From: a virus
DNA: 64,000 bases
Direction: 5' to 3' (one strand)
IMG/VR virus record: IMGVR_UViG_3300027815_000006
Coordinates: 28,389-92,388 of that record
A program made the position numbers and the translations under genes. Shown here in pieces: positions 19,558 through 43,609 of this stretch; position 1 is the first letter of the stretch, and every line of letters begins with the position of its first letter. The notes below the pieces were generated by a model that saw only the letters and a list, made by a program, of their open reading frames with translations, had not been told where the DNA came from and did not search any database.

Positions 19558-19571
19558 GGACCGTACGGTCC
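19558..19571. repeat. Dispersed palindrome GGACCGTACGGTCC
   Basis: Perfect, intergenic, upstream of the head-operon promoter. Confidence 0.95.
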
Positions 19572-25000: not shown

Positions 25001-25014
25001 GGACCGTACGGTCC
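25001..25014. repeat. Dispersed palindrome GGACCGTACGGTCC
   Basis: Perfect, between polA and amidase. Confidence 0.95.
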
Positions 25015-27292: not shown

Positions 27293-27293
27293 C

Positions 27294-30200
27294 TCAGAAC
27301 CCGCTCGCCTTCAGGTGCTTCTCGTAGATGTCCTTGGTGCTGTCCCCCACCACCACGAAGTCCTCGATCTTCTGCCCGTTGAACTCCGTAATGCCGTTGC
27401 TCTTGAGGTTGTCGATCACTTGAGTCCTGACGTATGCACTCCCGCACGCGATCTTCACGATGTACTTGGGATCAATCCCGCGTCGCCAGTTCTGCTCGTT
27501 CCCCCCGGAAGCCGTACCCGTACCCACAATATCCCCCAGCGTATCGCTCAAGGATTGACGGTTTTTATAGGTCGGATGGTTTGGTTTGTTGACGCCAAAC
27601 GAATCCCCGTTATAGGCGTACGAGTCCAACCTATCCGCCACGGACGGATGAACAATGTAGTTGATAGGCCCTGTAATGGAACCCGCGTACTGGCACGTCT
27701 GCCCCGCGTTCATGGTCCCCTCGGTCGCAACCCGCGTCAGGAACCCGTCCCCGCTACCGCTGTTGACATCCAACTCGTAGGACTTGCCGTTTTCCTGTGT
27801 GCCCGGTAGCCCCGGAGGAATCCCCGTCTGGTTGCGCGCCACGATACCAAGCAACCCCTTCGTAAGAATGCTGGTAGCGAGCTCCGGCTGACTACTACCC
27901 GCGAAAAAGAACTTGAGGCCCGTGGCTTGCTGGATCTTCTTGTATCTCCCTGGGAGAACCGTAGCGAAGTACCCCGGACTGACCTCCCGAGACTCCAGCT
28001 TGTCCATGTCCGCCTCGGACACGCCCGCATCCTTCAGTTTTTGACGCATAGACGCAGGTGTCTCGTTCTTGAGAGACTTCACCTGCGCATCGAACGTCTG
28101 GGGCGCAACGTCGAACAGGAGATCTGCGAGGCGTCCTACTTCCTTCTCCTGGGGTGTCGGATCCCGCAGCATATCCGCGGCAAAATCCGTCCCGCACAGA
28201 GACAACGCCCGATAGACCCCCGCGTCGAGAGACTCCCCTGGCTTCAGGTAGACCTTCGCAGCCACTTGGTGATTGTATCCGTACTGCTCCGAATCCACCC
28301 CCAGGAGCACCGACGTGTCCCCGTCCGCCCACCGCTTCCCCTTGACCCCAACACGCTGCCACGTCTTGTCCTTGTCTACGTACAGATCCTTGTCTGCGTT
28401 GTAGAATCCGTCTGAGAACAGCTGCGCGTCGGGGTTAGGCATCGTGCCCCCCGAGGGCGGAGGTTTCGGCACTGTCGGACTCACGTTCGTACCCCCCGCC
28501 ATGGAGGGGAGCGCCACCTGGGGTCGCAGACGGAAGAAGACCCGGTAGTATTCCTTCCCCTGGGGATCATTGTGCTTCTGGATGGTCATGGCCTGCCCCA
28601 TGACCGACAGCCCGTCGTGCTGCACCATCGTGTTGCTCCCGAGAGAGCCGCCCAGCCCCACCTCGTGCATCACCTGGGTGTAGCCCTTCGGAGAGAGAGA
28701 GGGCGTGAGCGCCGCCACCTGCGAGGTAGATGTCGCGGTGGGCGCCGGGGGCGGAGGAATCGGGACTTGCTGCCACCCATGCTGCGCGGTCAGAGACGCC
28801 CATTGGTCCTGGGTCAGCGTGATCCCGTACTTCTGCGACCCGTGGGGCTTGGCCTCCGCCGTGATCCCGAGCTTCTTGAGCTTGTCTACGACTGCCTGCG
28901 CCTTTGCGGGCCCGTCCGGCTGCGCGTAGAACGCCTGGAGCTTGAGCGTGATCTTGCTCGCGTCCGAAACCTGACCCACTCCCTCCCCGGGCTTCAAGGC
29001 GTAGAACTCGGGCATCTTCTGAATGATGGCCTGCCCCGTGTGGGGCACGAACATCATCCCCGGCTCCGCAGCCTCCCCGGTGGGGAGCACCGTAAGCGGG
29101 GGAGGTGGTGGTGGCGTGTAGACGGGGAGGTTCCCTGCGCCCACAGCGCTCTTCGGGTACTGGAAGGTCTCCCCCGCCCCCAGCTCCCCGCGCGCCTGCT
29201 TGAACGCCGTCCACATCGCCTCGAAGTCGCTGCGCAGCGACTTCTTGCGCGCGAGAGCGTTCTTCGTTACCGCCTCGCGGTTCTCCTTCGGGAGCGTTAG
29301 GAGATACGGCTGGAGGATGGCCTTGTAGTCCGCGTCGGAGATGGCCTCGGCGGCCTCAATCGCCGGAAGCATGTCCGCGGGGTTGAGCTCGGCCTTGCCC
29401 TCCTTGTACGCCGCGAACAGGTCGCTGTAGAGAGAACTTCCCCCCTCGGCCCCCTTGTAGGAGAGGTCGAGGAGAGCGTTGGCGTCCGATGCCGTCGTGC
29501 CAGCGAAATGCCGGAAAGCTCGGCTCTTGCCCTTGCTGACAGGAACCCCCGTCTCGCCCACGAGGAACCGAGAGGCCTGCGCGTCGTGGTTGCCGATCAA
29601 CCAGTCGAGGACGCGCTCCTTGAGGAGCTGCGCCTTGGCTTCGGGCGCGAACTTCGCCGGGTCTGTGTCGGAACTGGCCGACAGCTCCGTGTGCCCCTTC
29701 GGCACCGCTTGGATCACCCCGTCCTTGAAGGGAGTTACCGAGACGAAAGCGTCCCCGAGCACCAACGACGCCAGCTTCGCGCCCGTCACCCCCGCGGCGA
29801 CTCGCGGGGCTGGAATGTCCCCCGCCGGGTGATACTTCCACTCGTTTCCGGAGGCGTCCGCGTAGAGCCCGCCCCCCTTGTCCGTCAGACTGGCCGCCAC
29901 AGGCCCCACCAACGGCGCGGCCTTCGGAGACGTGTGCTGGAGTGAGAACCCCGCCGCATCCCCGGGTGGCTTGTTCTTGGTAGGCGGCGGAGGTGCTGGA
30001 ATTGCCGGAGGAGCCGGGGGAGCCGGGGGAGCCGGTGAAGGTGACCCCACGCCCCCCGCTCCGACACCGGCACCGGCACCGGCACCGGCACCGGCACCGG
30101 CACCCGCACCGGCACCCGCTCCGGCACCCGCTCCGGCTCCCGCTCCGGCTCCCGCTCCCGCTCCCGCACCCGCACCGGCACCACCCCCGCTCGCTCCAGC

Positions 30201-33200
30201 GCCTCCAGACACCTTTGGAGGTGGGGGCTGCTGGAGCACGGACACCGCATTGGCGGCCAACGTCTCCTGCGCCATCGTGGCAGGCCACGCGACCCCGAAC
30301 ACCGCCTCAAGATGCGCGACGTGTTCGGGGTTTTTGATGCTGCTCTGGAACTTGTCCGCGAGCTTCTTCAGACTGCTGGGAGTTGGAGGCTTCTTCGTGA
30401 GCGCCGCAGGAAAAGACTTGTGAGCATGGCCCACCACGCCAGTCACGAGATCCTCCCCTAAGAGATCCATGACGGTCTTACCCTCGGCAACCCACGCATC
30501 CCCCTTGGAAATTGCGGTGTCCACAGACGGAGCACTCGTGCCCTTGGCTGCCTGCCCGGCGGCGCAGAGCTGCGCGATGTACTTCTTCGCCGCGTCTTGA
30601 TCCCCGAGGTACGTCCCGATTTGCAGGACATACTTTCCGCTGACCTTGTTTTTGGCCAGCGCGGTGATCTTCTTCTCCCACCACTCGGGGGTGTGCAACG
30701 CGCCCAGACCATAGGCCCCCACAATACGCCTCGCCACCCTCAACGAGGCCATGTGCAGCCAGCCAGGGCCACTCTCCCCCACCAACCCCGGTGTCAACGG
30801 CATGGTCCAGGGCCAGCCCGCCTTGGAAAGCCATGACCACCCAGGCCATGTAAGCCCTCCCTCGGCACTGAACGCCGATACCTGCGCTTCCCCCTTCGAG
30901 GGCTCGGACTTCGGTTCGGGCTTCGGCTCTGACTTCGGCTCTAACTTCGCAGGAGCACCCCCGATGCCCATGTGCTTCTTGACCTGAGCGAGGAAGTCCG
31001 CGGGATCGGACCCCCCATAGCCTAGCGCCACAAGGGTACTAGTGGCGGGTGTAAGTGGAGGGAACTGCGCCAAAAACGTCGCCGCCCACAACGTCGCCGC
31101 GTCCGGTCCGAGAGCCGCTTTTACCCCCGCGACACTCTTACCCGCGAGATCCTGAGCAAGGGCCGCGAGCCCCGCCTTCGTAAACCCCTTGAGAGGACCC
31201 GTCATCACCGGCCCTGAGCCGGTTGGTGTGATAACCGCCTGAAGGTACCCGTGGAGCTTCGCCTTGAGAACCGGCCATGGCGTGCCGGTCATGGCCTCAA
31301 TGTCCGCCTCGGGAATACCGAAATTACTAGGAAGAGTAGCGAGCGCGGACGCCACGGTCTGACCGGAGGCGTGAACCTTGACGGACGCCGCGCCCCCTAG
31401 AATCTTCTCCGCCCAGAAGTCCCCGTAGAGATCCTTGAGCTTCTTCTCCTCGCCAGACAAAAACCCCGGCGTACTGGGAGAATTCGACCACGCCTGGAAA
31501 TCGCTCGCCAAGCTGGCGATGGACTTCCCCGCGAAAGGCCCCGCAGCGTCCCACATTGCGACTGAAGGCTGCACATCCGCCACGCCCCCCGCACCCGCCA
31601 TGTACCCCTTGATCTTCTCGACGTACTCCCCCGAAGGATAGGGAATACCCATCGCACCCGCCCATGCCGGGCCGTCAGGGTCCGCACTCGGACCGCCTAC
31701 AGCCCCCGCCTCCTTCGCAATGATGAACCCGGCGGTGAGGAACGTGGCGTAGTCCGGGCCGTAATCCTTCTCCAGATCCACCGCGGAGCTTGTGTTGTAC
31801 TGGAGGAAAAGCTCCTCAAGCCCTCCCTTGGTCCAGCCCTTGAGGGGCCCCGTCATCTTGGGCTCCTGCTCCGCCGGACCCGCCATCAAAAACCCGTGAG
31901 TCTGCGCCGCGAGAAGAGGCAGTGTGGTGCCCGCCGCCGCCGCCACACCCTTCCACATATCCTGCACGCTGGGCTGACTCAGCAAATCCGAGAGCTTCGT
32001 GGCTACAAACCCGGCCCCCGAACTGTCTGCGGCGTGCGCGGCGAGAAGAAGAGGCGCCCACTGCTCGCCGTACGCCTTCTTCAGGAGAGCAACAGCGCTG
32101 GGCTCCTGGACACTCGTAAGCGCAGGATGAGTGTCCACGGGCGCGGCGTTATACGCCGTCCACATCGCCGCCAACGCCGCTTGATCCTTGCCCGCCAGAG
32201 GCCCTGCCGAACTCCACATCTCTACGGCGGAGCCCGTGTCAGACTTGGAGGGGGAAGCGCCACTCCCCGCAGGCCCACCGGAAGAGCTCCCCGTGGAGGC
32301 CGCGGCCTCCTTCTTCTTCAGCGCGGCTACGTACCCCTCGATCTTGGCCTGGAACGCCTGCTTGTCGGCATCGGAGCCGGGGTAACTGTAACCGAAGGAC
32401 GCAAGGTCCATGCCGGATGCGTAGGCCCCCCCGAGGAGCAACTCCTTCCAATCGGGTCCGTAAAGCGCCTGGAGCTTACCCGCACTCGCGCTTGTGGGGA
32501 CTAACAAAGCCAGAGACAGCCCAGGATGCGTCGTGGCGGGCGCATTCGAGTATTCCACCCACAGGGCCTTCAGCCCATCCACCGTGTAACCCTTCAACGG
32601 TCCAAGCGCTGCGTCCCCAGGGTTATCCACAACCGGCTTGTCTGCGACAGGCTTGTCTACCGTAGGTGTGCCTGCGGGATTGTCCTTGAGGGCTGGGACT
32701 ACGTGGGCACCCTTCGGAGCCCAGCCTCCGGCGAAGGTGAAGGCGCCATCCTGCCCGAGACGCTTCTTGTAGAGCTTGGTGAGGAACGCCTCGAAGTCCT
32801 TCCGGACGTTCTTCTTTCGCTCCAGCGCCGCCTGGACAAACGCATCCGTACTGTTCTCGTGCCCCGGAGGCAGGGATGCCGCGTAGTCCTTGAGGAGCTT
32901 CGTGTACGCGGCATCGTCAAATTCCTCGACGGACTCAATCGCGGGAAGCATGGACTTCGGATCGAAGTCCATGGTGTTGTCCTTGAAGGCGTTCCAGAAG
33001 GTGTTGTAGTAGGGCGGGATGGGGTTGGGGTTGTAGTCCGCGGAGAGATCGTCCTCCCCGAAGTTCTTGAACCCCTGCTCCTTGTCGATCCCGAGTACGC
33101 GGGTGACCCCGCCCACCTTCGCCCGCACGAAGTTGTCGAAGTAGCTGTCGTGGTTGGAGGTCACCCAGTCCACGATGTGCTCCATGGCCACGTCCAGCTT

Positions 33201-36041
33201 GGATGTGTCCGAGAGCTTCTCCGGCGCGTTCGCCCACTGCTGGAGCGTCGCGCGCGGAGTGGCCTCAATCCACGGACGCAGAAGCCCCGGCATCCCGTTG
33301 ATGGTCTCCATCCGCACGGGAGGCGAAAAGGGCTTCACGACCTGCTGAAGCGCCGTACAGATCTCGTGAGACTTAGGACGCCACGGCTCCTTCTTGCTAG
33401 TGTTCCCCTTCTGCACAGCCCACTGGAAAAAGAAAAGGCTCCCCCCGTGCTTCGGGGCCTCCTGAACGTGCTGGAGCCAGGCGCCCCCATACTTTGCCTG
33501 GAGCCCCGCCGCCGCGACGTTGGAGATGTAAATGTCCTTCTTCCCCGCGCCCCCCAACGCAATCGTCCCTGGGGGGAGCTTCGTCAGCTCCGACACCGGA
33601 GGGATCGTGGAGACGAAGGGGAGGTCCTCCACCCCCGTGTCGTTCTCCGGGGGAACCGCCGAGGTGTCGAGCGCCGCCGGGGCCGCCGAAGCCCCCTCTG
33701 TAGGCGCAAGGATCGGCGCCGTGAACGGAACCTTCAGCGAGAGCGCGCCCTCGGCCCCCGGAGCGGCGGTCAGCGCCAGCACGGCCTCGTTCTTCCAGGG
33801 CCCCCCAGAAAACAGATCGCTCAGGAGCTCAGACTCATCGGGAGAAAGTCCCGCCGCCAGCGCGTCCATCTTCGCGCCCGCGCCCCCAGGAGGATACGGG
33901 GCCGTCGCATCGGGCGAAGAGAGGAGCATCCCGAGGGCCGCCGCCTGCGCCCAGTCGGAGCCGACATCCTTGGCCACGGAAGCCATGACCTCGGGGTCTT
34001 CGAGGATCGCGGTGACCGCCTTGGGTACGGACCCGTAGAGCTCCTTGAGCTTCTTGGCGTAGGTCTGAAGACCCCCCACCGTCGCGGAGGCAAGCTGCAC
34101 CGGAGAAGCCGCGGGCTCCTTCGGCTGGGGTACGTCAATCTCCGGCTCGGGCTCCGACGGGGGTTCGGGTGGCAGCACCGGATCCGACGCAGCCGGGTTT
34201 ACGGGAGCGGACCCGTACTTTTGCATCATCCCCCAGAGCGCCGTGACCTTCTCCGCACCGCCTAGCAGTGCGACCGATGTGGGGAAGTTTGTAAGAAACG
34301 CCCCCAACCCCCCAGCGAGCAGCACCGTCTGCTTGAAGGTGCCCAGCATCGCCTTCCCCGTAGTAATAGCGGCGAGAACAGTATCGAAGCTCCCGTAGTA
34401 CCCCGTCAAGAGCTTCTGGATATCAGCGCTCATCCCGCCGTACCCCGCGGGGTTGTGCGCGGAGGCTAGCTGTAGCAGGGCGAGCTCCTTGGAGCTCGTG
34501 AGATCAAAGGTGTCCCCGAGGAAGGTGAACGCCTGGACGGTCTGCGCGGGAGGAGAAGACTTCGCCGTACCGCCGTCCGGCGACGCCGCCAGATCAATGC
34601 TGGGCTCGGAGGGCTTGACCTTCGGCTTCGTGGACGCCTCGTAGGCACCCTTCCAGTCCGCAAAGCCCGCGCCCTGAACATACCCGTTCAGTTTCGCCAT
34701 GAACTCGGCGGAGAACAGATCCTCGGGGAAATTGTCGGCGCCCCCGAAGCCATGAACCAGCGCAGCTACGTCCGCCATCGCATTTGTGGAGGTGGGGAGC
34801 GCGCCTCCCCAAGCCCACCCGCTCTCCTCCTTCTGGATGTCCTTGACGAGCTTGACGTGATCGTCGTAGTCCGCGGCCCACCCGGAGGGAAGGAGGAGCT
34901 CCGTGTCGTGCACAAAGGACGGCCAGTCCGCCTTGAGCTCCGCTGTGGTCGCACCCCCAAAAAGCGCGTGCAGGGCCTTGAGCACCCCCACGGAGAGCGG
35001 CTCCTCAGGAACGACCGCGTGATCTGCGAGGATCGCAACGATCCCGTCGTACTTCTTGTTCCACTCTACCTGCTTCGCCACCGCCGCCTTCAACGGACCG
35101 ATGTGCTGCTTGGCAATAGCAAGCCAGCCGTCCCCAGAAATCTGCCCCACCGTATTCACCGTCCCGGGGGACAGCGCGTCCAAATCATCCACCGCACCGG
35201 CAGGTGCGAAGTTTGTCAGGAGGGCCGCGGTCTGCGTGAACCACGACTCCGCAGGGAGCGGATAGACCACCGGAGCGGCCTTGACCTCGGGAGGCGTGTC
35301 GGCCTTCGGCATCGCGCCGGTCCCCCCGTCCGCGGCGGGCGGCGGAGGGGGCTCATGCCACGGATCCTCCGGCTCGGGCTCTGGAGGAAGAACAGGCGGA
35401 GCATCCTTCGCTTCCGGAGGGGGCGCGGGCGGTGGCGTGGGCTCCGGCTCCGCCTTCAGAGCCGGGGGCTCGGGTTCCGGCTCGGGTTCCGGCTCGGGTT
35501 CTGAGGGCTCCGTAGGCTCCGCGGACGGGGCGGGCGTAGCCGGTTCGGGTGCTGCGGAAGGCTCCGGCTCGGGTACCGTACCCTTCGGGAGCTTCGAGAC
35601 AACCAGGGCTTGCCAGCCAGCCTTCATGTCCGGGTGCGTGAGCGCCACGGTGAGCTTCGGCTTCCAGTCGGCGCCCAGCCACTTCGTGAGCTGCTTCACC
35701 AGCCCCGCATGGACAGCATCCACCGCCGCCTTCTGCGCCTCGGGCGTCGCCGCGTTTACAACCGCGCCCAGCGCCTTGACGTTCTCGCCCGAGGGCGTGG
35801 CGAGATACTTCCAGTTGGCCGCACCCGCCCCCGGCTTGTCATCGTATTTGATGTAGAGAAGCTGCTTCGGCGGCTTCCCGTAGAGCTGCACCGTCCCCTT
35901 GGGCCAGTTGTCGCTCGCCTTGGCTTCCTCCAGGGCAAACGCCTCGGGGGAGAGCGTGTCCGCGTCCCCGTGGAGCGTGTCCCACAGATGGTCTGCGGAC
36001 CACCAATCGGAGGCGCCCCCGTCGTGCCCAGGCGCCCTCAC
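27294..36041 (-). CDS. Giant multidomain (polyvalent-type) protein: two HipA/PI3K-like kinase domains, five internal repeats, possible C-terminal ART-like domain
   Basis: 2915-aa ORF; VDWVTSNHDSYFDN..LGIDKEQGF and LDWLIGNHDAQASRF; repeats starting GP(L/F)xG; Pro-rich and (GA)n linkers. Confidence 0.8.
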   Translation of the reverse strand: MRAPGHDGGASDWWSADHLWDTLHGDADTLSPEAFALEEAKASDNWPKGTVQLYGKPPKQLLYIKYDDKPGAGAANWKYLATPSGENVKALGAVVNAATPEAQKAAVDAVHAGLVKQLTKWLGADWKPKLTVALTHPDMKAGWQALVVSKLPKGTVPEPEPSAAPEPATPAPSAEPTEPSEPEPEPEPEPEPPALKAEPEPTPPPAPPPEAKDAPPVLPPEPEPEDPWHEPPPPPAADGGTGAMPKADTPPEVKAAPVVYPLPAESWFTQTAALLTNFAPAGAVDDLDALSPGTVNTVGQISGDGWLAIAKQHIGPLKAAVAKQVEWNKKYDGIVAILADHAVVPEEPLSVGVLKALHALFGGATTAELKADWPSFVHDTELLLPSGWAADYDDHVKLVKDIQKEESGWAWGGALPTSTNAMADVAALVHGFGGADNFPEDLFSAEFMAKLNGYVQGAGFADWKGAYEASTKPKVKPSEPSIDLAASPDGGTAKSSPPAQTVQAFTFLGDTFDLTSSKELALLQLASAHNPAGYGGMSADIQKLLTGYYGSFDTVLAAITTGKAMLGTFKQTVLLAGGLGAFLTNFPTSVALLGGAEKVTALWGMMQKYGSAPVNPAASDPVLPPEPPSEPEPEIDVPQPKEPAASPVQLASATVGGLQTYAKKLKELYGSVPKAVTAILEDPEVMASVAKDVGSDWAQAAALGMLLSSPDATAPYPPGGAGAKMDALAAGLSPDESELLSDLFSGGPWKNEAVLALTAAPGAEGALSLKVPFTAPILAPTEGASAAPAALDTSAVPPENDTGVEDLPFVSTIPPVSELTKLPPGTIALGGAGKKDIYISNVAAAGLQAKYGGAWLQHVQEAPKHGGSLFFFQWAVQKGNTSKKEPWRPKSHEICTALQQVVKPFSPPVRMETINGMPGLLRPWIEATPRATLQQWANAPEKLSDTSKLDVAMEHIVDWVTSNHDSYFDNFVRAKVGGVTRVLGIDKEQGFKNFGEDDLSADYNPNPIPPYYNTFWNAFKDNTMDFDPKSMLPAIESVEEFDDAAYTKLLKDYAASLPPGHENSTDAFVQAALERKKNVRKDFEAFLTKLYKKRLGQDGAFTFAGGWAPKGAHVVPALKDNPAGTPTVDKPVADKPVVDNPGDAALGPLKGYTVDGLKALWVEYSNAPATTHPGLSLALLVPTSASAGKLQALYGPDWKELLLGGAYASGMDLASFGYSYPGSDADKQAFQAKIEGYVAALKKKEAAASTGSSSGGPAGSGASPSKSDTGSAVEMWSSAGPLAGKDQAALAAMWTAYNAAPVDTHPALTSVQEPSAVALLKKAYGEQWAPLLLAAHAADSSGAGFVATKLSDLLSQPSVQDMWKGVAAAAGTTLPLLAAQTHGFLMAGPAEQEPKMTGPLKGWTKGGLEELFLQYNTSSAVDLEKDYGPDYATFLTAGFIIAKEAGAVGGPSADPDGPAWAGAMGIPYPSGEYVEKIKGYMAGAGGVADVQPSVAMWDAAGPFAGKSIASLASDFQAWSNSPSTPGFLSGEEKKLKDLYGDFWAEKILGGAASVKVHASGQTVASALATLPSNFGIPEADIEAMTGTPWPVLKAKLHGYLQAVITPTGSGPVMTGPLKGFTKAGLAALAQDLAGKSVAGVKAALGPDAATLWAATFLAQFPPLTPATSTLVALGYGGSDPADFLAQVKKHMGIGGAPAKLEPKSEPKPEPKSEPSKGEAQVSAFSAEGGLTWPGWSWLSKAGWPWTMPLTPGLVGESGPGWLHMASLRVARRIVGAYGLGALHTPEWWEKKITALAKNKVSGKYVLQIGTYLGDQDAAKKYIAQLCAAGQAAKGTSAPSVDTAISKGDAWVAEGKTVMDLLGEDLVTGVVGHAHKSFPAALTKKPPTPSSLKKLADKFQSSIKNPEHVAHLEAVFGVAWPATMAQETLAANAVSVLQQPPPPKVSGGAGASGGGAGAGAGAGAGAGAGAGAGAGAGAGAGAGAGAGAGAGAGVGAGGVGSPSPAPPAPPAPPAIPAPPPPTKNKPPGDAAGFSLQHTSPKAAPLVGPVAASLTDKGGGLYADASGNEWKYHPAGDIPAPRVAAGVTGAKLASLVLGDAFVSVTPFKDGVIQAVPKGHTELSASSDTDPAKFAPEAKAQLLKERVLDWLIGNHDAQASRFLVGETGVPVSKGKSRAFRHFAGTTASDANALLDLSYKGAEGGSSLYSDLFAAYKEGKAELNPADMLPAIEAAEAISDADYKAILQPYLLTLPKENREAVTKNALARKKSLRSDFEAMWTAFKQARGELGAGETFQYPKSAVGAGNLPVYTPPPPPPLTVLPTGEAAEPGMMFVPHTGQAIIQKMPEFYALKPGEGVGQVSDASKITLKLQAFYAQPDGPAKAQAVVDKLKKLGITAEAKPHGSQKYGITLTQDQWASLTAQHGWQQVPIPPPPAPTATSTSQVAALTPSLSPKGYTQVMHEVGLGGSLGSNTMVQHDGLSVMGQAMTIQKHNDPQGKEYYRVFFRLRPQVALPSMAGGTNVSPTVPKPPPSGGTMPNPDAQLFSDGFYNADKDLYVDKDKTWQRVGVKGKRWADGDTSVLLGVDSEQYGYNHQVAAKVYLKPGESLDAGVYRALSLCGTDFAADMLRDPTPQEKEVGRLADLLFDVAPQTFDAQVKSLKNETPASMRQKLKDAGVSEADMDKLESREVSPGYFATVLPGRYKKIQQATGLKFFFAGSSQPELATSILTKGLLGIVARNQTGIPPGLPGTQENGKSYELDVNSGSGDGFLTRVATEGTMNAGQTCQYAGSITGPINYIVHPSVADRLDSYAYNGDSFGVNKPNHPTYKNRQSLSDTLGDIVGTGTASGGNEQNWRRGIDPKYIVKIACGSAYVRTQVIDNLKSNGITEFNGQKIEDFVVVGDSTKDIYEKHLKASGF
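30058..30185. repeat. Hexamer tandem repeat encoding about 20 Gly-Ala units
   Basis: (GCACCG/GCTCCG/GCTCCC)n. Confidence 0.9.
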
Positions 36042-36757
36042 GGCCCCTCCCAGATACGACCCTTCGAGTCCTTCCGCGCGACGATGAAGAAGCTCAGGTT
36101 CTTCCGGGCATGGAGCTGCCGCACACAGCGGGAAACCCCTGCTTTGGCGGCCCGGACCAACATGAAGAGATCCTCTACCACAAAACCTGCGGCCTCATAA
36201 TGCCGGATGAGCTCTACGTGCGTCAAGCGCTGCCTGTTCGCGCAGACCTCATCCTGGCACTTCACCACGTAGACCCCGTTGTCACACAAAACCCGCGCGT
36301 GCTCCTTGAATCCCTCGAAGTAGAAGGACAGAAGCGCCTCGTGCCACTTCCCCTCTGGCGTCTCCTCTGGGGGCGCCCCCTCCCCGACCTTGTAGTACGA
36401 CCTGAAGGCTTGGTGTTCTGAGGTCTGGTAGGTGGAGTCCCCCGAAGGCCGAAGGTACGGAGGATCGAAGACGAGAAGCTCCAGGGAGCCGGAGGAGTAG
36501 GGGAGGTGCCGGGCGTCCGTGCCCGTCTGAATGTCCGATAGGTAGCGGGTCTTGTATTGGTCGTCCGGGATTCGCCGCCAGAAGACCCCCGTCCCGTAGG
36601 TCACGTCCGCAATGCGGGAATCCTGCCGCGCGTAGAGCTGGAGGATCGTGGGGAAAATGTCGGAGGAGTCCCCCACCACGGCGGCCTGCACAAGATCCGT
36701 GCGTGCGCTACCCCTCGGGGACTTCCGAGACTTCGCGGGCTGGATCTCCGTGGTCAT
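36038..36757 (-). CDS. DNA amino-methyltransferase (probably m6A)
   Basis: DVTYGTG SAM motif and FDPPY catalytic motif; start MTTEIQ. Confidence 0.85.
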   Translation of the reverse strand: MTTEIQPAKSRKSPRGSARTDLVQAAVVGDSSDIFPTILQLYARQDSRIADVTYGTGVFWRRIPDDQYKTRYLSDIQTGTDARHLPYSSGSLELLVFDPPYLRPSGDSTYQTSEHQAFRSYYKVGEGAPPEETPEGKWHEALLSFYFEGFKEHARVLCDNGVYVVKCQDEVCANRQRLTHVELIRHYEAAGFVVEDLFMLVRAAKAGVSRCVRQLHARKNLSFFIVARKDSKGRIWEGP

Positions 36758-36939
36758 TCTGAGGGAGGATCGCCGTTCTCGTCCTGTACATCCTCGCGGC
36801 CTTCGCCCTTGGCCCACATGATCACAAGCTCCGCGAGTTCCTTGTGGATGCCGAGGAGCATCGAGAGCTCGTGCGGGGAGTGAGCCTCCAGAGGCTTCGC
36901 CAGCGGGGGCGGTGTGTGTTCGTTGGCGGTCTCGGTCAT
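36754..36939 (-). CDS. Small hypothetical protein
   Basis: MTETANEH, ATGA-coupled at both ends. Confidence 0.55.
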   Translation of the reverse strand: MTETANEHTPPPLAKPLEAHSPHELSMLLGIHKELAELVIMWAKGEGREDVQDENGDPPSE

Positions 36940-37997
36940 TTGACCCATCCTAGCTTCTTGAAGAGCCCGTCCATGGCCTCCCCGATGGGCTTGAAGTCCT
37001 CGTCCGACCACTGCATCGGGACAGAGCTGGACTGGTACCTCTTGAGCTGCTGGAGGAGCAGCGGATTCTGTGAGCGCGTGGCGATGTACTGCGCGTACGC
37101 CCGCGCGAACATCTCGTACCGCTTGAGGAGGTAGGTCCGCAACGGCGCGGGAACGACGGGGGATGGCTTGTTCAAGGTCTGGATGGCCTGAGAGTCGTCC
37201 ATCGCCTTCATCACCGCGTGGTACTCAGGCATCTTCGAGTGCTTGCTCCCCGAGTGTTGAGGAGTACCCGTGGCGTTGTAGTCCAGGTAGTGCCCGAACT
37301 CGTGCACGAAGGTGAGCTCCGGGCTCTTGTTGGACGGGGACTTCGACACCACAATCTCGTTGGGGATGTTCCCCGCGTAGCTTAGGTATGCCCCTGAAAC
37401 TTTTTTGAGATCCACGGACGACCGTACGGGGATGTTGGGGAGCGCTTTGGGGGGGAGCCCGAGGCCGTGCACCGACGCAATGATCTTGAACGCATCCTTG
37501 ATCGCCTGCGCATGAACGTGCTCCGGCCCGTCCTTCACCGTCACGGCCTTCGAGGGATCCATCCCCTGCGGCTGGAGCTTCACGGGAGGGGTGGGGACCG
37601 GCGGCTGGGTTTCCGGATGGACCGCCGGAACCACCGGGGGCTGGACATGCGCCGGAGGTACCTCGGGGGTGTGCTTCGTGACGGGCACGGTCACGATGCC
37701 CCCGCCATCCACAGGATGCGGCTTGCCGTGCTCGCCCCCCAGGACCGCGTTGGCCTTGGGAGTGCCCACCGTGGCGTAGTATTTCCAGTTCTTGCCCCCG
37801 GCGCCCACGGTGTCCGCGATCTTGACGTAAATGTGCTTCCCGTAGGTCTTGTAGGTGCCCACAGGCAGCGCGTCCGTCTCCCCCTCCTGGAGGGGCACGA
37901 TGAGGGTGTCCAGGGCAACCCACTCGCCGCAGAGGGAAAAGATCCGTTCACCGAGGGAGGACATGCGGGGCATCCTTGGAGAAGTGGTCTGCGACAT
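36936..37997 (-). CDS. Zincin metallopeptidase-domain protein
   Basis: TFVHEFGHYLD and EMFARAYAQY; N-terminal module shared with the giant protein; alternative start at 37964. Confidence 0.8.
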   Translation of the reverse strand: MSQTTSPRMPRMSSLGERIFSLCGEWVALDTLIVPLQEGETDALPVGTYKTYGKHIYVKIADTVGAGGKNWKYYATVGTPKANAVLGGEHGKPHPVDGGGIVTVPVTKHTPEVPPAHVQPPVVPAVHPETQPPVPTPPVKLQPQGMDPSKAVTVKDGPEHVHAQAIKDAFKIIASVHGLGLPPKALPNIPVRSSVDLKKVSGAYLSYAGNIPNEIVVSKSPSNKSPELTFVHEFGHYLDYNATGTPQHSGSKHSKMPEYHAVMKAMDDSQAIQTLNKPSPVVPAPLRTYLLKRYEMFARAYAQYIATRSQNPLLLQQLKRYQSSSVPMQWSDEDFKPIGEAMDGLFKKLGWVK

Positions 37998-38796
37998 GGA
38001 GAAGCGCGGCCCTCATGGCTAGGTCTACATCCCCAGGCGGCTCCTTGTCCACCACGGCGCGGAGGAACCTGTCGAGCGCGCCCTTGGAGGCTTTGGACAG
38101 GGGGATGTAGACATGCTCGCGCCCCCCGAGGGTGAGCACCATGTAGGAGTGCTGGAGCGTGCTGCCGTGATCCTCCTGGAGGCGCTTCACGATGGCCGCC
38201 AGCTCGTCGGTGGTCCGGGCCTGCTTCGCCTGCTTGTCGTACTTCGCCAGCGCATCCTCGGGGGTGCCGTGGGACTGGAGGGCCTTCCGGGTCGTCTCCA
38301 CCATGGCCCGCCATTGGTCGTCCTCCGTCACGGCGAAGAGCTTGCGGACTTCCTGGGCACTCCGTTTGGCCACGAATTCGTGGAGGAGCCGCGCGAGTTT
38401 CTCAGGATTGGGCTTCCCCCGGATGTTGTTCAGCCGGAAGGACAGCGCCTTCTGCACGTCCTCGTCCTCGAAGTCCTCTACGGGCAGGATGATCGCGGAT
38501 ACCTCGGGGAGATGCAGGTGCTCCGCAGCCCGCCACCGATACTCCCCCCCAAGGATCCGGTATTCGAGGTGCCCGATGGGCACGAGGATGAGGGCCTCCA
38601 GGAACCCTACGGTCTGGATCTCCTCTACCAGCGCCGCGAAGGTCGCCGGAGTCTGCTCGTTGACGTTCCACCCCGTCGGCACACAGGCCGACGTGGGCAC
38701 CAGCTCCGGCATGAGCACCCGGACAGGACCCCCAGGTCCCAGACCCGCACCCTCCGGGGCATCGGACCGTACGGTCCGGTTTCGAGGACGACCCAT
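37948..38796 (-). CDS. ParB/Srx-family protein
   Basis: WNVNEQT...LVEEIQTVGFLEALIL...YRILGGEYRWRAA (GxxRxxA-type box), LNNIRG, followed by an HTH-like segment. Confidence 0.85.
   Translation of the reverse strand: MGRPRNRTVRSDAPEGAGLGPGGPVRVLMPELVPTSACVPTGWNVNEQTPATFAALVEEIQTVGFLEALILVPIGHLEYRILGGEYRWRAAEHLHLPEVSAIILPVEDFEDEDVQKALSFRLNNIRGKPNPEKLARLLHEFVAKRSAQEVRKLFAVTEDDQWRAMVETTRKALQSHGTPEDALAKYDKQAKQARTTDELAAIVKRLQEDHGSTLQHSYMVLTLGGREHVYIPLSKASKGALDRFLRAVVDKEPPGDVDLAMRAALLHVADHFSKDAPHVLPR
38764..38777. repeat. Dispersed palindrome GGACCGTACGGTCC
   Basis: Perfect, at the 5' end of the ParB-like gene. Confidence 0.95.
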
Positions 38797-38806
38797 GACC
38801 CGTAGC

Positions 38807-38983
38807 CTACTCCGGTTTGGTCAGCTCGGACAGAGCCTCCAGCTTGACCGCCAGGAGATGAAGGGTAGCCGAGACCTCTTCGTCCGAAGAGGCCACCGAC
38901 TCACACCGCCGCGCCACCGCCGCGAGGCTACGCTGGGCCGACGCCAGCTCGTCCAGGAGCACCACCAACGCTAAAGATTCCAC
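38807..38983 (-). CDS. Small helical hypothetical protein (58 aa)
   Basis: Manual translation VESLALVVLLDELASAQR...ELTKPE fills the operon gap. Confidence 0.5.
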   Translation of the reverse strand: MESLALVVLLDELASAQRSLAAVARRCESVASSDEEVSATLHLLAVKLEALSELTKPE

Positions 38984-38989
38984 GGGGAC

Positions 38990-39865
38990 CTACTGATTAG
39001 GTGAGGGTGAGGGTGAGGGGGTGTACTGCGAGTCGAAGATCACGTTGTCACTGCTCTCCAGCGCAATGATACGCAGCCCCAGCGCGTCCGCGAGAGAGCG
39101 TAGGAGGAGCGCGCGGGAATGCTCGGACACCGTGAAGGCGTTGGATGCGAGGAACTGCGTGCAGACGAGGGAGAGGTTGTGGGACGGCACCTCGCTCCCA
39201 GAGGCCTCCTGCGCCCGGTCGAGGGCCTGCTGAACCACCTGGAGCTGTCCGGGGTGCAGCATGAAGACCTTGCGCGTGAGCACGTCCGACGGCGACACCT
39301 GAATCGCAGGAAGCTCCGCCTCGGGACTTCCTGGGCTCGCGGCTTCGTAGGGCGCGGAGGAACCCGCCCCCTGTGTGGGACTGCTGGCGCTCTGGGCCTT
39401 GGTGAGCTGCGCCTTGACGGTGACCTCCAGGTCCGCGAAGGACTTCTTCTCCGCGTAGTCCACCCACTGCGGGAGCGTGTCCTTCGCCGCGACCCGAAGG
39501 ATCTCCCGAGCCTTGGTCCACCCCACGGCCTCCAGCCGTGGCCGGAGCTCCGGTTGCCCTTCGAGCACGCTCTCCGCCCTGTCCGCGATGAGCCGGAGAG
39601 CATTGGCCTTGTGCGGGTTGAGCCCGAGGTCCTGGTACACCCACTCGTTCCAGGACTTGTAGCCCCAGGTCGTGCAAACCAGCGGTTTCGAGGGATCGTC
39701 CTCGACGTGCGTGCGGTAGACGATGGATAGGATCATCGCCAAGTCCATGTAGGACTGCTCCAGCACCTTCACCGCGGTACGCGCCCGGGTGCGGATCATC
39801 ACCCCCCACGCCTTCGTCCCCGGTGCCTTGTCCTTCGCCGTCGTCATTGCCGTATGTTCAGCCAC
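38990..39865 (-). CDS. Putative DNA-binding protein
   Basis: WGYKSWNEWV..LGL..KANALRLIA and VGWTKAREI helical motifs. Confidence 0.6.
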   Translation of the reverse strand: MAEHTAMTTAKDKAPGTKAWGVMIRTRARTAVKVLEQSYMDLAMILSIVYRTHVEDDPSKPLVCTTWGYKSWNEWVYQDLGLNPHKANALRLIADRAESVLEGQPELRPRLEAVGWTKAREILRVAAKDTLPQWVDYAEKKSFADLEVTVKAQLTKAQSASSPTQGAGSSAPYEAASPGSPEAELPAIQVSPSDVLTRKVFMLHPGQLQVVQQALDRAQEASGSEVPSHNLSLVCTQFLASNAFTVSEHSRALLLRSLADALGLRIIALESSDNVIFDSQYTPSPSPSPNQ

Positions 39866-40667
39866 CGTCGGCCTCCTCGAAACAGGGGGTTACAAGGTCG
39901 CAACGCTGCGCGAAGGCATCCGTGGCCGCCCCACACACCCGCGCGGGCAACGCGCCGCCATCGAGCCCTTCCCGAAGGATTCGTACTTCCTCCCGCAGCG
40001 CCACCACAATCTCGGGGTCGAAATCCACCGTGTGCTCCACCAAAGCGTCCACCCCCTTCCCCGCCTTGTGCCAGTAGAGGATCGTCCCCCACCGCAGCCC
40101 CGTCAGGTGCATATAAACGTGTACCTGTAGGACATGCGCATACAGGGGGGCCTCCTCGATCTGAGGCCGGTACCCGACGGACTTGGCCTCGAAGATCCCC
40201 AGGTCCTCCCGCCACGGAACCCGGAGGAACCCGTCGGGGTGGCCCTGGAGGCCGTCGCCCTGGAGAAACATCTCCTGGTAGCCGAACTCCCGCGAGCCGC
40301 ACGGACACTGCCGCGGACGCAGGACGAGCTGGGCGGGATCGAAGTCCCCCATGCACACGCTGGCCGGTCCCCCTACAGAATCACCGCACCCCAGACACCC
40401 CCAGCGCCCCACCAGCACCTCCAGCTCCGGGAGGAGTCTGTTCTGGACCGCCCAATGGATCGCGTCCCCGTGGAGGAAAGTCATGCGCGCGTCTGCGGTG
40501 TCCTGCCGAAGGAGCGGGAGGCGCCGCCGAGCGCGAAGAACCTCGAACCGCGGGCACAGCGCGTGGATTCCGGAGGCCCGAACACCCTCGGAGCCGATGC
40601 CCGTCAGCGGAGCCTGCGTGCTCTCGCGGGTGAACCGGGCGTCTACCAGTGCCTTGAGGGTGTTCAC
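39858..40667 (-). CDS. Cas4-like / PD-(D/E)XK exonuclease
   Basis: RASGI..LCPR, GDAIH, GHPDG, FEAKS, QVHVYM, terminal C..C..C; start GTG 40667. Confidence 0.8.
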   Translation of the reverse strand: MNTLKALVDARFTRESTQAPLTGIGSEGVRASGIHALCPRFEVLRARRRLPLLRQDTADARMTFLHGDAIHWAVQNRLLPELEVLVGRWGCLGCGDSVGGPASVCMGDFDPAQLVLRPRQCPCGSREFGYQEMFLQGDGLQGHPDGFLRVPWREDLGIFEAKSVGYRPQIEEAPLYAHVLQVHVYMHLTGLRWGTILYWHKAGKGVDALVEHTVDFDPEIVVALREEVRILREGLDGGALPARVCGAATDAFAQRCDLVTPCFEEADGG

Positions 40668-41191
40668 GCCGCCTCCAGAAGAGTGCGCGCCTCCAGGAAA
40701 GACAGTCCGAGCCAGCGCCCGTGTTCCGGGTCGGACGCCCGGAAGCTCAAGAAGATGGCGCCGACCTTGGGGGGCTCCGTCTGAAACGCCGCGCGCACAG
40801 CCTCGCTGTGCAACGGGATGGAGTGATGGGTGGTCTCGTAGCCGGTGACCTTCAAGGTCTGGAGCTCCCGCCGGAAGAGGACGTAGCGCGCGGGGAGGAA
40901 CAGCATCTCCAGGTCTGCGTTGGAGAACCGCACAGCCAGCGCCGGGGCCTTGCCTACGCGCAGCGCCGCGATGCGTACGACCTCCAGCCACCGAAGCTGG
41001 AGCTGGAGCACGTCCTTCTCCGTGCGCTTGTGCTCGATGAGGGCCTTGGGGTGTACAAGGTCCGCCCCTGCGGTCTGCGCCCCGGCGTAGGGCTTGGAGC
41101 CCGAGGCGGGAAGGCGCCGCGCGCCGAGAGCCTGCGCCGCCGCGTTCTCCACCCGCTTTGTCTCGCGGCTGCGACGGCGACGTTCGTCCAC
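40664..41191 (-). CDS. PD-(D/E)XK nuclease, Holliday junction resolvase-like
   Basis: E..AAQALGARRLPASGS, ADL, IEHKRT. Confidence 0.7.
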   Translation of the reverse strand: MDERRRRSRETKRVENAAAQALGARRLPASGSKPYAGAQTAGADLVHPKALIEHKRTEKDVLQLQLRWLEVVRIAALRVGKAPALAVRFSNADLEMLFLPARYVLFRRELQTLKVTGYETTHHSIPLHSEAVRAAFQTEPPKVGAIFLSFRASDPEHGRWLGLSFLEARTLLEAA

Positions 41192-41195
41192 GGGG

Positions 41196-42338
41196 CTACT
41201 TGAGAAGCACGGCCAGGAGCGCGTCCCGGACCTGCGCCTTGTAGTCCGCGCTCTCCATGAGCCCCGTCTCGACGTGGCTTCGAGTGGGGAACTCCTTATC
41301 CAAAAGGAGGTACCGCATCCCCACCTTCGTCAGGAGTCCGGCGTACTCCGCATCGTCCACCATCGCCGTCTCATCTCCCACGTCCCCGCGCTTCTTCAGC
41401 CCGGAGTCCGCGAAGAAAAGCCTGTACTCCCCCTGTGTCCGAGGCGCGGCCACCTTGGACTTCACCACCGTCACGGTGTTGGTGGCGTACACGGGAAACT
41501 CCTTCCGGGCCTCCTTGTCCTCCACCATCTCCACCTTGCCCCCCGAAGTACGGATCTCCACCGCGTTCAGATACCCCACCGCGAACCCCCCGGCCTGCAC
41601 GATGGGCGAGCCCCAGACGACCCCGACTTTGGAGCGCTCCTGTGAGACCGTGAGGAGCGTGGGGCGGCGTCCGGTGAGGTTGCCCTGCGCGTTGAGGGCG
41701 GCCACGATGCGCCTGGATGCCTCCGTGAGAAGGCGTGCCTGCGCGCCCGGAGTGGGCTGGTTGACCTCCCGGTCGATCTCCTTCGCAGGCTGGAGGAAGG
41801 CGATGGAGTCCAGGACCACGAGGTTGCACGTCCCGCTGCGCAGAAGCGTCTCCACGATCTCCACAGCGTCCTCCCCCGTGGAAGGCTGGGTGTAGAGGAG
41901 CCGCTCCACCTGCACCCCGAGGTGCGCGAGCCACCGTAGGTCGGTGGTGCCCTCCACGTCCACGTAGGCCGCCAGGAGGTCGTCAGGCTCCTTGCACGCA
42001 CAGGGACGGCGTTGGTAGCACCGCGCGCAGAGGCGCTGGGCCTGCGCAACCGTCTTGGCGCACAGGGCGCTCTTGGCACTGGACTTCGGCCCCCAGAAGG
42101 AGGTCACGAGACCCACGGGGACACCCCCACCCAACCCCACGTCCAGCGGGTATACGCCCGTGGGGATGACCTGCCGGTTCAGGAGCACACGGTTCTCCGA
42201 GGCCACGCCGAAGGCGTGCTCCCCAAAGCGCTTGCGGAGCGCCTTCCCGATGCTTCCCTGAAGGAGCCCCTGGAGCTTGTCCTCGGCCATGGGCTCCGGC
42301 GGCGCCCCCTTCTTGGCCTTCGGCGTCGGCTCGCTCAA
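41196..42338 (-). CDS. recA: RecA-like recombinase
   Basis: IPTGVYPLDVGLGGGVPVG, GPKSSAKS, YVDVEG, VVLDSIA, QARLL, VVKSKV; carries a Cys insertion. Confidence 0.92.
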   Translation of the reverse strand: MSEPTPKAKKGAPPEPMAEDKLQGLLQGSIGKALRKRFGEHAFGVASENRVLLNRQVIPTGVYPLDVGLGGGVPVGLVTSFWGPKSSAKSALCAKTVAQAQRLCARCYQRRPCACKEPDDLLAAYVDVEGTTDLRWLAHLGVQVERLLYTQPSTGEDAVEIVETLLRSGTCNLVVLDSIAFLQPAKEIDREVNQPTPGAQARLLTEASRRIVAALNAQGNLTGRRPTLLTVSQERSKVGVVWGSPIVQAGGFAVGYLNAVEIRTSGGKVEMVEDKEARKEFPVYATNTVTVVKSKVAAPRTQGEYRLFFADSGLKKRGDVGDETAMVDDAEYAGLLTKVGMRYLLLDKEFPTRSHVETGLMESADYKAQVRDALLAVLLK

Positions 42339-42670
42339 AACGGTGCCTCGTTGAGGTTGGGCTTGGGCTTGGTGTTCGGCTGGGTGTGCCCGTGGAGCGC
42401 GCCCAGGTGTGCCTGCACGAACGCCTGCGCCTGCTTGTAGGCCGCCTCGATGGCGATGGACGTGGGCGCACAGGGCAGGGTGACGTGCACCGTCACCCTG
42501 AGCGACTCGAAGTTTCCGAGGTTCCGGGTGAAACCCTCCTCGTACCCCACATGCGCGCAGGGGAGGTCCGTGGGCTCTACGGGAATGGGGAGGTCCGCGG
42601 CCTCCACGGTCTTGCTCCCGCTGGAGGACTTCTCCGTCGTGATGTTCGCGCTCGCCTTGGCTGTTTGCAT
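42335..42670 (-). CDS. Hypothetical protein
   Basis: TRNLGNFESLRV motif; coupled to recA. Confidence 0.65.
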   Translation of the reverse strand: MQTAKASANITTEKSSSGSKTVEAADLPIPVEPTDLPCAHVGYEEGFTRNLGNFESLRVTVHVTLPCAPTSIAIEAAYKQAQAFVQAHLGALHGHTQPNTKPKPNLNEAPF

Positions 42671-42692
42671 CGCTTCCTCGGGGAGAAGTATT

Positions 42693-42706
42693 GGACCGTA
42701 CGGTCC
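42693..42706. repeat. Dispersed palindrome GGACCGTACGGTCC
   Basis: Perfect, intergenic. Confidence 0.95.
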
Positions 42707-42728
42707 AACTGTTAGCCCTTACGAAAGG

Positions 42729-43574
42729 CTACAGCGCGATGGTGGCGGAGTCCGCGACGGTCACCCCGTCGTACTTCGCCCAAGCTGCGCGGACCTCCTC
42801 GTGGAAGGCGCGCTGATTCGCCTCGGAGTGCAGGGTACCCACCCGCTGAATCGCAGCGCGGGCTGCCTCGATCATGTCGAGGGTGTACAGGCGGTGCCGC
42901 TTGGAGGTGGGCTTGAACGGCGTCTCGGGGAGGACCCCGGAGCGCTCCATCTGCGACACCGTGGAGATGTTCCGCTCCAACGCGAGGGCCATCGCCCCCA
43001 CCCGAAGGAGGTAGAGCCGCTGGCGCGTCCCGTCGGGGAAGAGCACGTCGCGCGCGAGGACCGGCACGTCCCGCACCCGCGGCACCGCCCGGTCCAGGTG
43101 GATCCGCCCCTTGGCCTGGAGAAGCCCCAGGATCGTCTCCATGTGCTCCACGGTGTACACCCGCTCCCCGGTCGTGCCCCAGAAGGACGGGCCTGGGATC
43201 ACCCCCCGCTCCTCCCAGCCCCGGAGTGCCTGGAGGGACACCCCCGCCACGAAGGCCAGAGCCGAAATGGGGTAGCCGTAGACCGTCGTCCGACGCTCCA
43301 CGCCCCCCTCCGTGATGAGCACCTCCACCGCCACAGGATCGTGGTCCCGGCGCAGGAGGTAGTCATTGACCTTCACCGCATCCCTCACCACCTGCTGCGC
43401 GGCGAGCTTCTCCTCCTTCATCCGGTTGCGCGCGTCCCGGTTGATCTTGAGAATGTGCGCCCGGTAGGCCGGATCGGTCCAATATCGCTGTGTACGCCGG
43501 ACGTTACGGTTCTCACCCCCCTCGCCTGCGTTCCACGCCGCATACCGAGTGGACTGCTGTGCTGGATCTGCCAT
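42729..43574 (-). CDS. Transcription regulator with two MerR-like HTH domains
   Basis: ISALAFVAGVSLQALRGWEERGVIP..ERVYT and VGAMALALERNISTVSQMERSGVLP..HRLYT. Confidence 0.8.
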   Translation of the reverse strand: MADPAQQSTRYAAWNAGEGGENRNVRRTQRYWTDPAYRAHILKINRDARNRMKEEKLAAQQVVRDAVKVNDYLLRRDHDPVAVEVLITEGGVERRTTVYGYPISALAFVAGVSLQALRGWEERGVIPGPSFWGTTGERVYTVEHMETILGLLQAKGRIHLDRAVPRVRDVPVLARDVLFPDGTRQRLYLLRVGAMALALERNISTVSQMERSGVLPETPFKPTSKRHRLYTLDMIEAARAAIQRVGTLHSEANQRAFHEEVRAAWAKYDGVTVADSATIAL

Positions 43575-43580
43575 GCCCAG

Positions 43581-43609
43581 AGCATAGCAACGTTCGGGCG
43601 ATGGGTCAA
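43581..43609 (-). promoter_or_regulatory. Leaderless-type promoter
   Basis: TTGACC-N17-TATGCT, 6 nt before ATG 43574. Confidence 0.75.

Follow-up and report, generated by a model that had tools for sequence, protein, structure and literature searches.

An orphan ParB-like protein as a candidate reader of a genome-wide palindrome array in a T4-like phage

The window analysed here, 64,000 nucleotides of an uncultured phage corresponding to bases 28389-92388 of a 92,388-bp IMG/VR virus record (IMGVR_UViG_3300027815_000006, hereafter G000), carries many copies of a perfect 14-base palindrome. One of them lies at the 5' end of a gene encoding an orphan ParB-like protein (P0001; 37948-38796 on the minus strand, 282 residues in its longest form, as defined from the translated open reading frame (ORF) and from Pfam, PHROG and AlphaFold2 results). 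Which protein reads these palindromes? The original prediction had named the ParB-like protein as the best candidate, and it keeps this place because its family comes and goes with palindrome arrays in cultured phages. Its build, which resembles ParB, Noc and KorB, is in line with this role. Against it stand four carriers of the family that lack an array, and a search for specificity residues that found none. Judging from the sequences compared, we regard it as evenly balanced whether the orphan ParB-like protein reads the 14-base array.

Palindrome arrays and the ParB-like family

The palindrome can be described as the 14-mer GGACCGTACGGTCC, the 16-mer CGGACCGTACGGTCCG or the dyad YGGACCGTACGGTCCR, with the word GGACC-GTAC-GGTCC in a 5-4-5 geometry. 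We found 14 exact copies and two copies with one mismatch in the window, where 0.6 would be expected, and 23 exact copies in the 92-kb record. The right end of the record is overlapped over 133 nt at 99% identity by another contig (L038, IMGVR_UViG_3300027815_000149, 14,392 bp), which, because of this overlap, we took as the continuation of the same phage for 14.3 kb. It adds five copies, and joining the two brings the number of exact 14-mers to 27. The completeness of the record was estimated at ~59%, and a protein identical to P0001 is recorded on a 156-kb contig. The sequence examined for this phage is 106 kb of ~156 kb, about one third being unseen.

Copies occur throughout the 106 kb, one every ~4 kb, and are placed more evenly than at random (coefficient of variation, CV, of 0.60, P = 0.005). 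Twelve of 25 are intergenic in a genome that is 92% coding (binomial P = 7.5e-8, with our own codon-based gene calls), and the remaining ones lie in variable parts of genes, in different frames, which suggests that selection on the copies acts at the DNA level. About half of the copies are found at gene boundaries, many 20-40 nt after a stop codon and two between convergent genes. In IMG/VR, 43 contigs have the 14-mer in one copy each, which we take as chance, and only L038 has five. Several readings of the copies were tried and rejected. Restriction-site logic was dropped since the rest of the genome shows no avoidance of GTAC, CGTACG, GGACC or GGTCC. As for terminators or promoters, there are no T-runs, no sigma70-like promoters and no conserved flanks beyond +/-2 nt. 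Nor could the palindrome be read as an insertion: its copy in the primase gene falls in a linker that varies, and comparison with a syntenic relative (G001) gave no clean indel.

We searched for the family by tblastn, which gave 20 cultured phage records, and counted dyads on whole genomes, accepting only dense or many-copy sets as arrays. The homologues of the cultured carriers are 21-33% identical to P0001 over ~200 residues, and their box II reads GGHHR, SGHHR or DGEHR. Six siphophages among them carry TGCAA-N4-TTGCA sites in large numbers (counted with at most one mismatch): RcTiptonus (dyad TGCAATCGATTGCA, 49 sites), DLP_5 (TGCAATnnATTGCA, 41), JP1 (TTGCAAACGTTTGCAA, 40), VH2_2019 (TTGCAATTAATTGCAA, 36), RHph_Y1_11 (GTGCAAnnnnTTGCAC, 29) and RcZahn (TGCAATnnATTGCA, 26). 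Their dyads have 5-bp arms around 4 bp, i.e., the geometry of G000 with a different half-site, and are placed every 1.9-3.7 kb on average, with a CV of 0.41-0.62 against ~0.95 for random placement. In the annotated first 31 kb of RcTiptonus, six of the 14 dyad copies are intergenic, a share similar to that of G000; the genome paper of this Rhodobacter phage makes no mention of the repeat (PMC8601537). The vibriophages PG28 and V-YDF132 likewise carry both the family and TGCAA-N4-TTGCA arrays. Altogether, eight cultured genomes (MW677527, NC_042082, MN988558, MN794238, MW677529, PQ741606, MT735630 and ON075462) have 10-50 evenly spaced copies each, and five IMG/VR loci with distant full-length relatives of P0001 have TGCAA-type dyads in their flanks.

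The SIO-2-like vibriophages provide natural pairs of cultured phages with and without the gene. The gene-positive PG28, V-YDF132 and VH2_2019 have 10, 25 and 10 exact TGCAA-N4-TTGCA sites (in V-YDF132, 25 exact TGCAATTAATTGCA), whereas SIO-2, LV6 and VHB1, which are gene-negative in a search with the family profile, have 3, 1 and 3. The array is thus present in three out of three phages with the gene and in none of the three without it. V-YDF132 was not among the tblastn matches, and its array was therefore in effect a prediction. When we took the ORFs of VH2 that are kept in at least four of the five other array phages, the ParB-like gene was the sole one missing from SIO-2. SIO-2 keeps the large terminase gene (TerL) and the gene in the position of the small terminase (TerS), and lacks the pair of glycosyltransferase and ParB-like genes. 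None of the other DNA-binding genes common to the array phages tracks the arrays. Further carriers suited to such comparisons are RcTiptonus, DLP_5 and JP1.

No dense array was found in SIO-2, Colly_1, RHph_TM30 or phiLo, which have a related TerL and no family member by hmmsearch. Over all genomes examined, 14 carriers have a TGCAA-type or dense array and six do not, and none of the six non-carriers has one (Fisher's exact P ~0.004, a figure that overstates the independence of these related genomes).

Build of the protein and the case against a reading role

The original prediction described P0001 as a ParB N-domain followed by a helix-turn-helix (HTH)-like segment. The first part was confirmed: Pfam ParB_N (PF02195) matches residues 53-110 above the cut-off (E = 1.3e-8), and the GGEYRWRAA box was located at residues 83-91. 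The protein matches the family phrog_26387, annotated as 'ParB-like partition nuclease' (E = 2.3e-32, residues 31-241 against positions 11-216 of 252 in the profile), and 1,261 representatives of the family were collected at E <= 1e-3, most of them aligned over residues ~33-245. The second part has partial support, from an HTH stretch that is colinear with that of Noc: the family profile aligns to residues 19-209 of Geobacillus Noc, through the HTH (E = 1.7e-21).

We built an AlphaFold2 model on 108 homologues (predicted local distance difference test, pLDDT, of 88). It consists of a ParB/Srx N-domain, a helical middle domain and a small C-domain made of a beta-hairpin and two helices. The modelled N-domain resembles those of KorB (8qa8; Z 13.0, root-mean-square deviation of 1.9 Å over 91 residues) and PadC (Z 12.7), and also sulfiredoxin (Z 11). 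The best Foldseek matches of the whole model were Noc (7nfu), ParB and KorB, over ~190-230 columns. The N-domain is predicted to be a nucleotide-binding domain of the ParB/Srx type, and the modelled C-terminal domain probably dimerises. The 'partition nuclease' annotation is probably wrong for this gene.

Some members of the family have acquired other domains. In P0026, P0034, P0036, P0093 and P0152 we found inteins (Hint and LAGLIDADG) at a conserved GFTD motif, inserted between GF and TD; their presence at this point suggests that the motif is functionally important. Another member, P0067, is fused to a DprA domain.

Several observations weigh against a reading role for P0001, some of them in the protein itself. 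It has a tyrosine where ~90% of the family has a histidine (GGEHR; in P0001 the codons for GGEYR, residues 83-87, are at 38536-38550 on the minus strand, and the histidine is near-invariant in the family). Compared with the arginine pair of the ParABS box II (GERRxRA), GGEYRWRAA keeps the second arginine and has the tyrosine in place of the first. The Pfam scan of P0001 gave no HTH (in canonical ParABS ParB proteins, the central DNA-binding domain is PF17762), the HTH stretch in the Noc alignment has a five-residue deletion, low posterior probability and no significance alone, and a search with the isolated middle domain brought up nothing more specific than generic helical bundles. In the putative recognition helix we found no polar residues that are conserved among the TGCAA phages and different elsewhere. 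Co-variation of this helix with the dyad word was also compared and dropped, as it showed no informative pattern.

Other such observations come from the genomes. The relative G001 (41.8 kb) is syntenic with G000: the two have 22 genes in common at 28-53% identity and the same gene order around the ParB-like gene, which in G001 is directly followed by a 3114-aa protein. No repeated dyad, whatever its sequence, was found over these 41.8 kb, against ~13 in the equivalent part of G000. The closest large relative, G003 (L165-L173; 168 kb, 80% complete), has a ParB-like protein 38% identical to P0001. The dyad dispersed over its genome is a different one, of 18 bp, TGCGTCCAT(A/G)TGGACGCA, in only ~8 copies (e.g., at 10969, 56343, 90842, 101466, 126214, 144364, 161279 and 163420), none of them near the ParB-like gene. 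No dyad array was found in G005 or in the Arthrobacter phages KellEzio and DanielleIgnace, and G004 has a single 14-bp dyad, twice; ACGAGCTCGT was rejected as a small array of G004 because it has only 3 copies, equal to the reversed control. Conversely, the control phiLo has a sparse repeated dyad (4 copies) without the gene. The family therefore exists without a dense array, and would be at best necessary for one, not sufficient. The siphophage carriers also have a replication and packaging module, including TerL, in common with each other and with G000. As a consequence, the co-occurrences are not phylogenetically independent, and a lineage effect could lie behind them. Finally, the unseen third of the genome could hold another reader, or a ParA.

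Proposed mode of action and alternative explanations

If the ParB-like protein is the reader, P0001 would most likely bind the dyad YGGACCGTACGGTCCR (14-16 bp) as a dimer. The dyads, occurring about every 4 kb, would serve as loading sites, like those of KorB on RK2 or those of Noc on the Bacillus chromosome. The loaded protein would then clamp or spread in a nucleotide-dependent manner and act on the whole phage genome, where its downstream effect may be compaction, a packaging mark, transcription control or the guiding of a DNA-modifying enzyme. More broadly, we propose, tentatively and at somewhat less than even confidence, that a phage-specific ParB family lacking ParA uses evenly spaced dyads for loading and coats or marks the whole chromosome, with lineage-specific dyad words (GGACC-GTAC-GGTCC here and TGCAA-N4-TTGCA in proteobacterial siphophages). 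If so, the purpose of such a chromosome-wide ParB system may be packaging, a mark of self and non-self or the guidance of DNA-modifying enzymes, and clamps of the ParB/KorB type would give lytic phages a general means of acting on the chromosome as a whole.

By analogy, KorB and its OB sites offer the nearest mechanistic model. This CTP-dependent clamp loads at OB and slides up to 1.5 kb (McLean et al. 2025, PMC11790492), a distance that suits sites placed every 2-4 kb. Like the system proposed here, it pairs a ParB-family protein with palindromic sites scattered over a replicon (12 OB operators in the IncP-1 plasmid RK2). KorB differs in belonging to a plasmid, in its defined HTH and in having KorA as a partner and IncC as its ParA. 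The G000 system has more sites, evenly spaced, and GGEYR instead of the arginine pair. It belongs to a lytic T4-like phage in which ParA was not found in the 106 kb and no KorA was recognised, although no search aimed at KorA was made. The next model is Noc of Bacillus, an orphan ParB paralogue that reads a dispersed 14-bp palindrome (the Noc-binding site, NBS) and is the best sequence and Foldseek match to P0001. Noc is cellular, tethers DNA to the membrane by an N-terminal amphipathic helix and is only ~17-19% identical to P0001. In canonical ParABS systems, parS sites cluster near the par locus, whereas the copies in G000 are spread over the whole 106 kb. The sequences available place the system with KorB and Noc in kind, as what appears to be a new variant in a lytic phage.

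Genome-wide dyad arrays of phages have been on record since 2015 without a reader or a function. The nearest described phenomenon is that of the Cluster O mycobacteriophages, in which a 17-bp dyad, TGTTCGGNNNCCGAACA, occurs throughout the genome and was predicted to bind a dimeric protein, its function being unknown (Cresawn et al. 2015, PMC4351075). Many of its copies are intergenic and about one third are in genes. These phages have no parA and encode an orphan ParB-like protein, Corndog gp90, which the authors set aside without linking it to the repeats (PMC4351075). We found that gp90 (502 aa) matches the phrog_26387 family over the N-domain only (E = 2.4e-11). Cluster O differs from G000 in dyad sequence, host and phage type. 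A family of array-loading ParB proteins, if there is one, could also explain its arrays. A 2025 survey reported that orphan ParB-fold proteins are common in phages and mostly uncharacterised, and did not link them to arrays (PMC12704722).

A different role for the ParB-like protein is rather unlikely, in our assessment, but has several points in its favour. P0001 could work apart from the array, as an accessory or activator, itself nucleotide-binding, of an enzyme engaged in packaging, in recombination or in DNA modification (a neighbouring methylase or glycosyltransferase), while another protein, possibly specific to G000, reads the palindromes. This would fit the four carriers without an array and the lack of conserved DNA-reading residues. 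The inteins at the GFTD motif are of the sort found in catalytic DNA-metabolism proteins. ParB homologues without an evident DNA-binding domain have been shown to activate phage thymine dioxygenases (5mYOX) on double-stranded DNA, with no reported link to palindrome arrays (O'Toole et al. 2026, PMC13229309); like P0001, they are orphan phage ParB proteins with N- and C-domains and no obvious DNA-binding domain, encoded beside DNA-modification genes.

The gene neighbourhoods also fit a role in DNA transactions. In all eight cultured carriers inspected, the gene directly follows a glycosyltransferase, and in six proteobacterial carriers it is one gene before TerL. The six Gram-negative siphophages, which infect Rhodobacter, Stenotrophomonas, Rhizobium, Vibrio and Agrobacterium, share a cassette of glycosyltransferase, sometimes a small ORF, the ParB-like gene, a ~200-aa gene in the TerS position and TerL (e.g., L055:8571-15127, L056, L057, L058, L060 and L061); RcZahn, whose record is permuted, has its glycosyltransferase at the opposite end. 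In the Arthrobacter phages, the glycosyltransferase and then the ParB-like gene are at the right genome end, with a methylase nearby. In both G000 and G001, the ParB-like gene is flanked by recombination genes on one side and by a giant polyvalent protein on the other, and that of G000 has a methylase beside it.

What an array-independent role leaves unexplained is the tracking in the vibriophages, where the ParB-like gene is the only core gene that follows the array. A part in DNA modification also finds few partners in this phage: Tet_JBP (PF12851) has no match at E <= 1 in G000, L038, G001, RcTiptonus or DLP_5, and no homologue of the glycosyltransferase of the siphophage cassette was found in G000, L038 or G001. 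The two roles are not exclusive, since a ParB-like protein loaded on the array could recruit an enzyme.

Could another regulator of the phage be the reader instead of the ParB-like protein? Of the window genes that were scanned, just one more encodes a clear HTH protein, a MerR-like one (42729-43571; MerR_1 HTH, E = 3e-9; PHROG 'transcriptional regulator'). MerR proteins bind dyads, a palindrome copy lies 22 nt after the stop codon of this gene, and the share of copies at gene boundaries would suit a transcription network of operators or 'stoperator'-like sites read by this or another phage regulator. We consider this very unlikely. The gene is kept in the array-less G001 and is not common to the TGCAA-array phages (VH2 has only a weak match, and the core list does not include the gene). 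The copies have no promoter elements at a fixed distance, and about half of them are inside genes.

It is still less probable that the palindromes are RNA hairpins, i.e., terminators, processing sites or stabilisers, to which the ParB-like gene is unrelated. The 16-mer does fold into a 6-bp stem with a 4-nt loop (-9.5 kcal/mol), and the copies that follow stop codons closely or separate convergent genes are where such hairpins would be expected. Yet no T-run follows the copies, they are evenly spaced along the genome, and about half of them lie within coding sequence, in more than one frame. Since the loop, too, is palindromic, the element is a perfect dyad in DNA.

The remaining explanation, a true partition ParB of a plasmid-prophage whose ParA would be encoded in the unsequenced third, recalls the SopB protein of phage N15, which also has palindromic sites for a ParB-family protein scattered among phage genes, and is compatible with the ~59% completeness of the record and with the identical protein on the 156-kb contig, but we discount it almost entirely, because there is no ParA in the 106 kb or beside the gene in any relative, the N-terminus of P0001 has no LG(K/R)GL-type ParA-binding motif, the genes present are those of a lytic T4-like phage, and the family adjoins TerL in siphophages. 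N15 itself has SopA, only four dispersed centromere sites and a plasmid lifestyle. The sites of F (sopC) and N15 also have GGACC...GGTCC arms, a possible resemblance to the G000 word. The absence of ParA noted in the original prediction was borne out: PF13614 and PF01656 have no match in G000, L038 or G001. The N-terminus of P0001, MGRPRNRTVRSDAPEGAGLGPGGP, is likewise devoid of the ParA-binding motif (L/F/I)G(K/R)G(L/F/I), as defined in PMC12704722.

The 5' end of the gene and its surroundings

The ParB-like protein had also been predicted to use the 5'-end copy (38764-38777, exact) for repression of its own gene, with TAGGCT as the -10 box of the promoter. We think this improbable. A scan of 38600-39000 gave no sigma70-like promoter or terminator, although it did not cover phage-specific promoter types. 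The letters TAGGCT are indeed present 7 nt before the ATG at 38796, and they include the TAG stop codon of a small upstream ORF (58 aa, 38807-38983, minus strand). About half of the copies being at gene boundaries, one near the ParB-like gene is expected by chance. In the relatives G001, G003, G004 and G005 the gene abuts the upstream stop and has no dyad at that position, and in the siphophages the nearest dyad is either 0.3-4 kb from the gene or inside its 3' part, a position that is not conserved. The simplest view of the 5'-end copy is that it belongs with the other copies at gene boundaries and is no dedicated autoregulatory operator, and the idea of self-repression should not be carried forward for this gene.

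The original placement of the 14-mer GGACCGTACGGTCC at +20 to +33 is correct if translation starts at ATG 38796. This is one of three candidate starts, with GTG 38718 and ATG 38712 (together 38712-38720, minus strand), which we compared by codon score, by the starts of homologue alignments and by ribosome-binding sites. Alignments of homologues begin only at residue ~25-31 of P0001, which favours a later start. The codon score favours GTG 38718, which has a GGGGG Shine-Dalgarno sequence ~9 nt upstream. On the other hand, in the four relatives (G001, G003, G004 and G005) the start of the gene overlaps (ATGA) or adjoins the upstream stop codon, and ATG 38796, 10 nt past the upstream TAG, fits this tight coupling. 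With the start at ATG 38796 the palindrome would be read as codons 7-11 (NRTVRS); with GTG 38718 it would be an element of the 5' untranslated region, ~41-52 nt upstream.

The ParB-like gene of G000 sits between a recombination block and a cargo block. The upstream block comprises the MerR-like gene, RecA, a resolvase, an exonuclease, a gene for a 285-aa protein of unknown function and the 58-aa ORF, and the downstream block an LPD1 protein, a methylase and a polyvalent protein of 2915 aa. A megablast search of 36000-44000 against phages and plasmids gave no match. The longest palindrome-free stretch, 26931-38763 (11.8 kb), covers the polyvalent gene, the methylase, the LPD1 protein and the ParB-like gene. 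Its GC content (0.62-0.66) is slightly lower, the overall value being ~66%, and could reflect a more recently acquired block.

The gene content of G000, as far as it can be read from sequence similarity, is that of a T4-like lytic phage. We found a Gp23-type capsid protein, a T4-type portal and a prohead protease among structural genes, and PolA, an intein-bearing helicase, a primase, DnaB, RecA, a resolvase and an exonuclease for replication and recombination. The gene at 21385-23427 (minus strand) encodes a 680-aa protein that is 31-37% identical to the annotated TerL of SIO-2-like, DLP_5-like and other phages. Pfam gives no match for this protein, which we identify as the large terminase on the basis of these alignments; the adjoining gene (23417-24154) is likely TerS. 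The helicase gene (43606-45984, minus strand) contains an intein with a LAGLIDADG homing endonuclease, and a free-standing LAGLIDADG-like gene is found beside the capsid gene (13779-15086, minus strand). A second, strong N6_N4 DNA methylase (50447-51406, minus strand; E = 9e-41) is missing from the relatives G001 and G003.

Besides the copy at the ParB-like gene, exact copies occur in the window at 3312-3325, 6431-6444, 54752-54765, 58244-58257 and 63952-63965. Those at 10147-10160, 19558-19571 and 25001-25014 are exact and intergenic, as is the copy that follows the MerR-like gene (42693-42706), and the one at 12741-12754 is intergenic with one mismatch. Exact copies also lie between convergent genes (13327-13340), at the 3' end of a gene (26917-26930) and within the helicase gene (45748-45761). 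The exact copy at 48601-48614 reads GPYGP in the variable linker between the zinc finger and Toprim domains of the primase (47826-49007, minus strand). A copy with one mismatch, GGACCGCACGGTCC, is at the 3' end of the second methylase gene, 8 nt before the stop (50455-50468). Outside the window, the copy at 22991-23004 of G000 (window position -5397) adjoins the AGAGGAG ribosome-binding site of a 1597-aa gene, whose ATG comes 10 nt after the copy. Of all copies, this position makes it the one most likely to affect expression directly.

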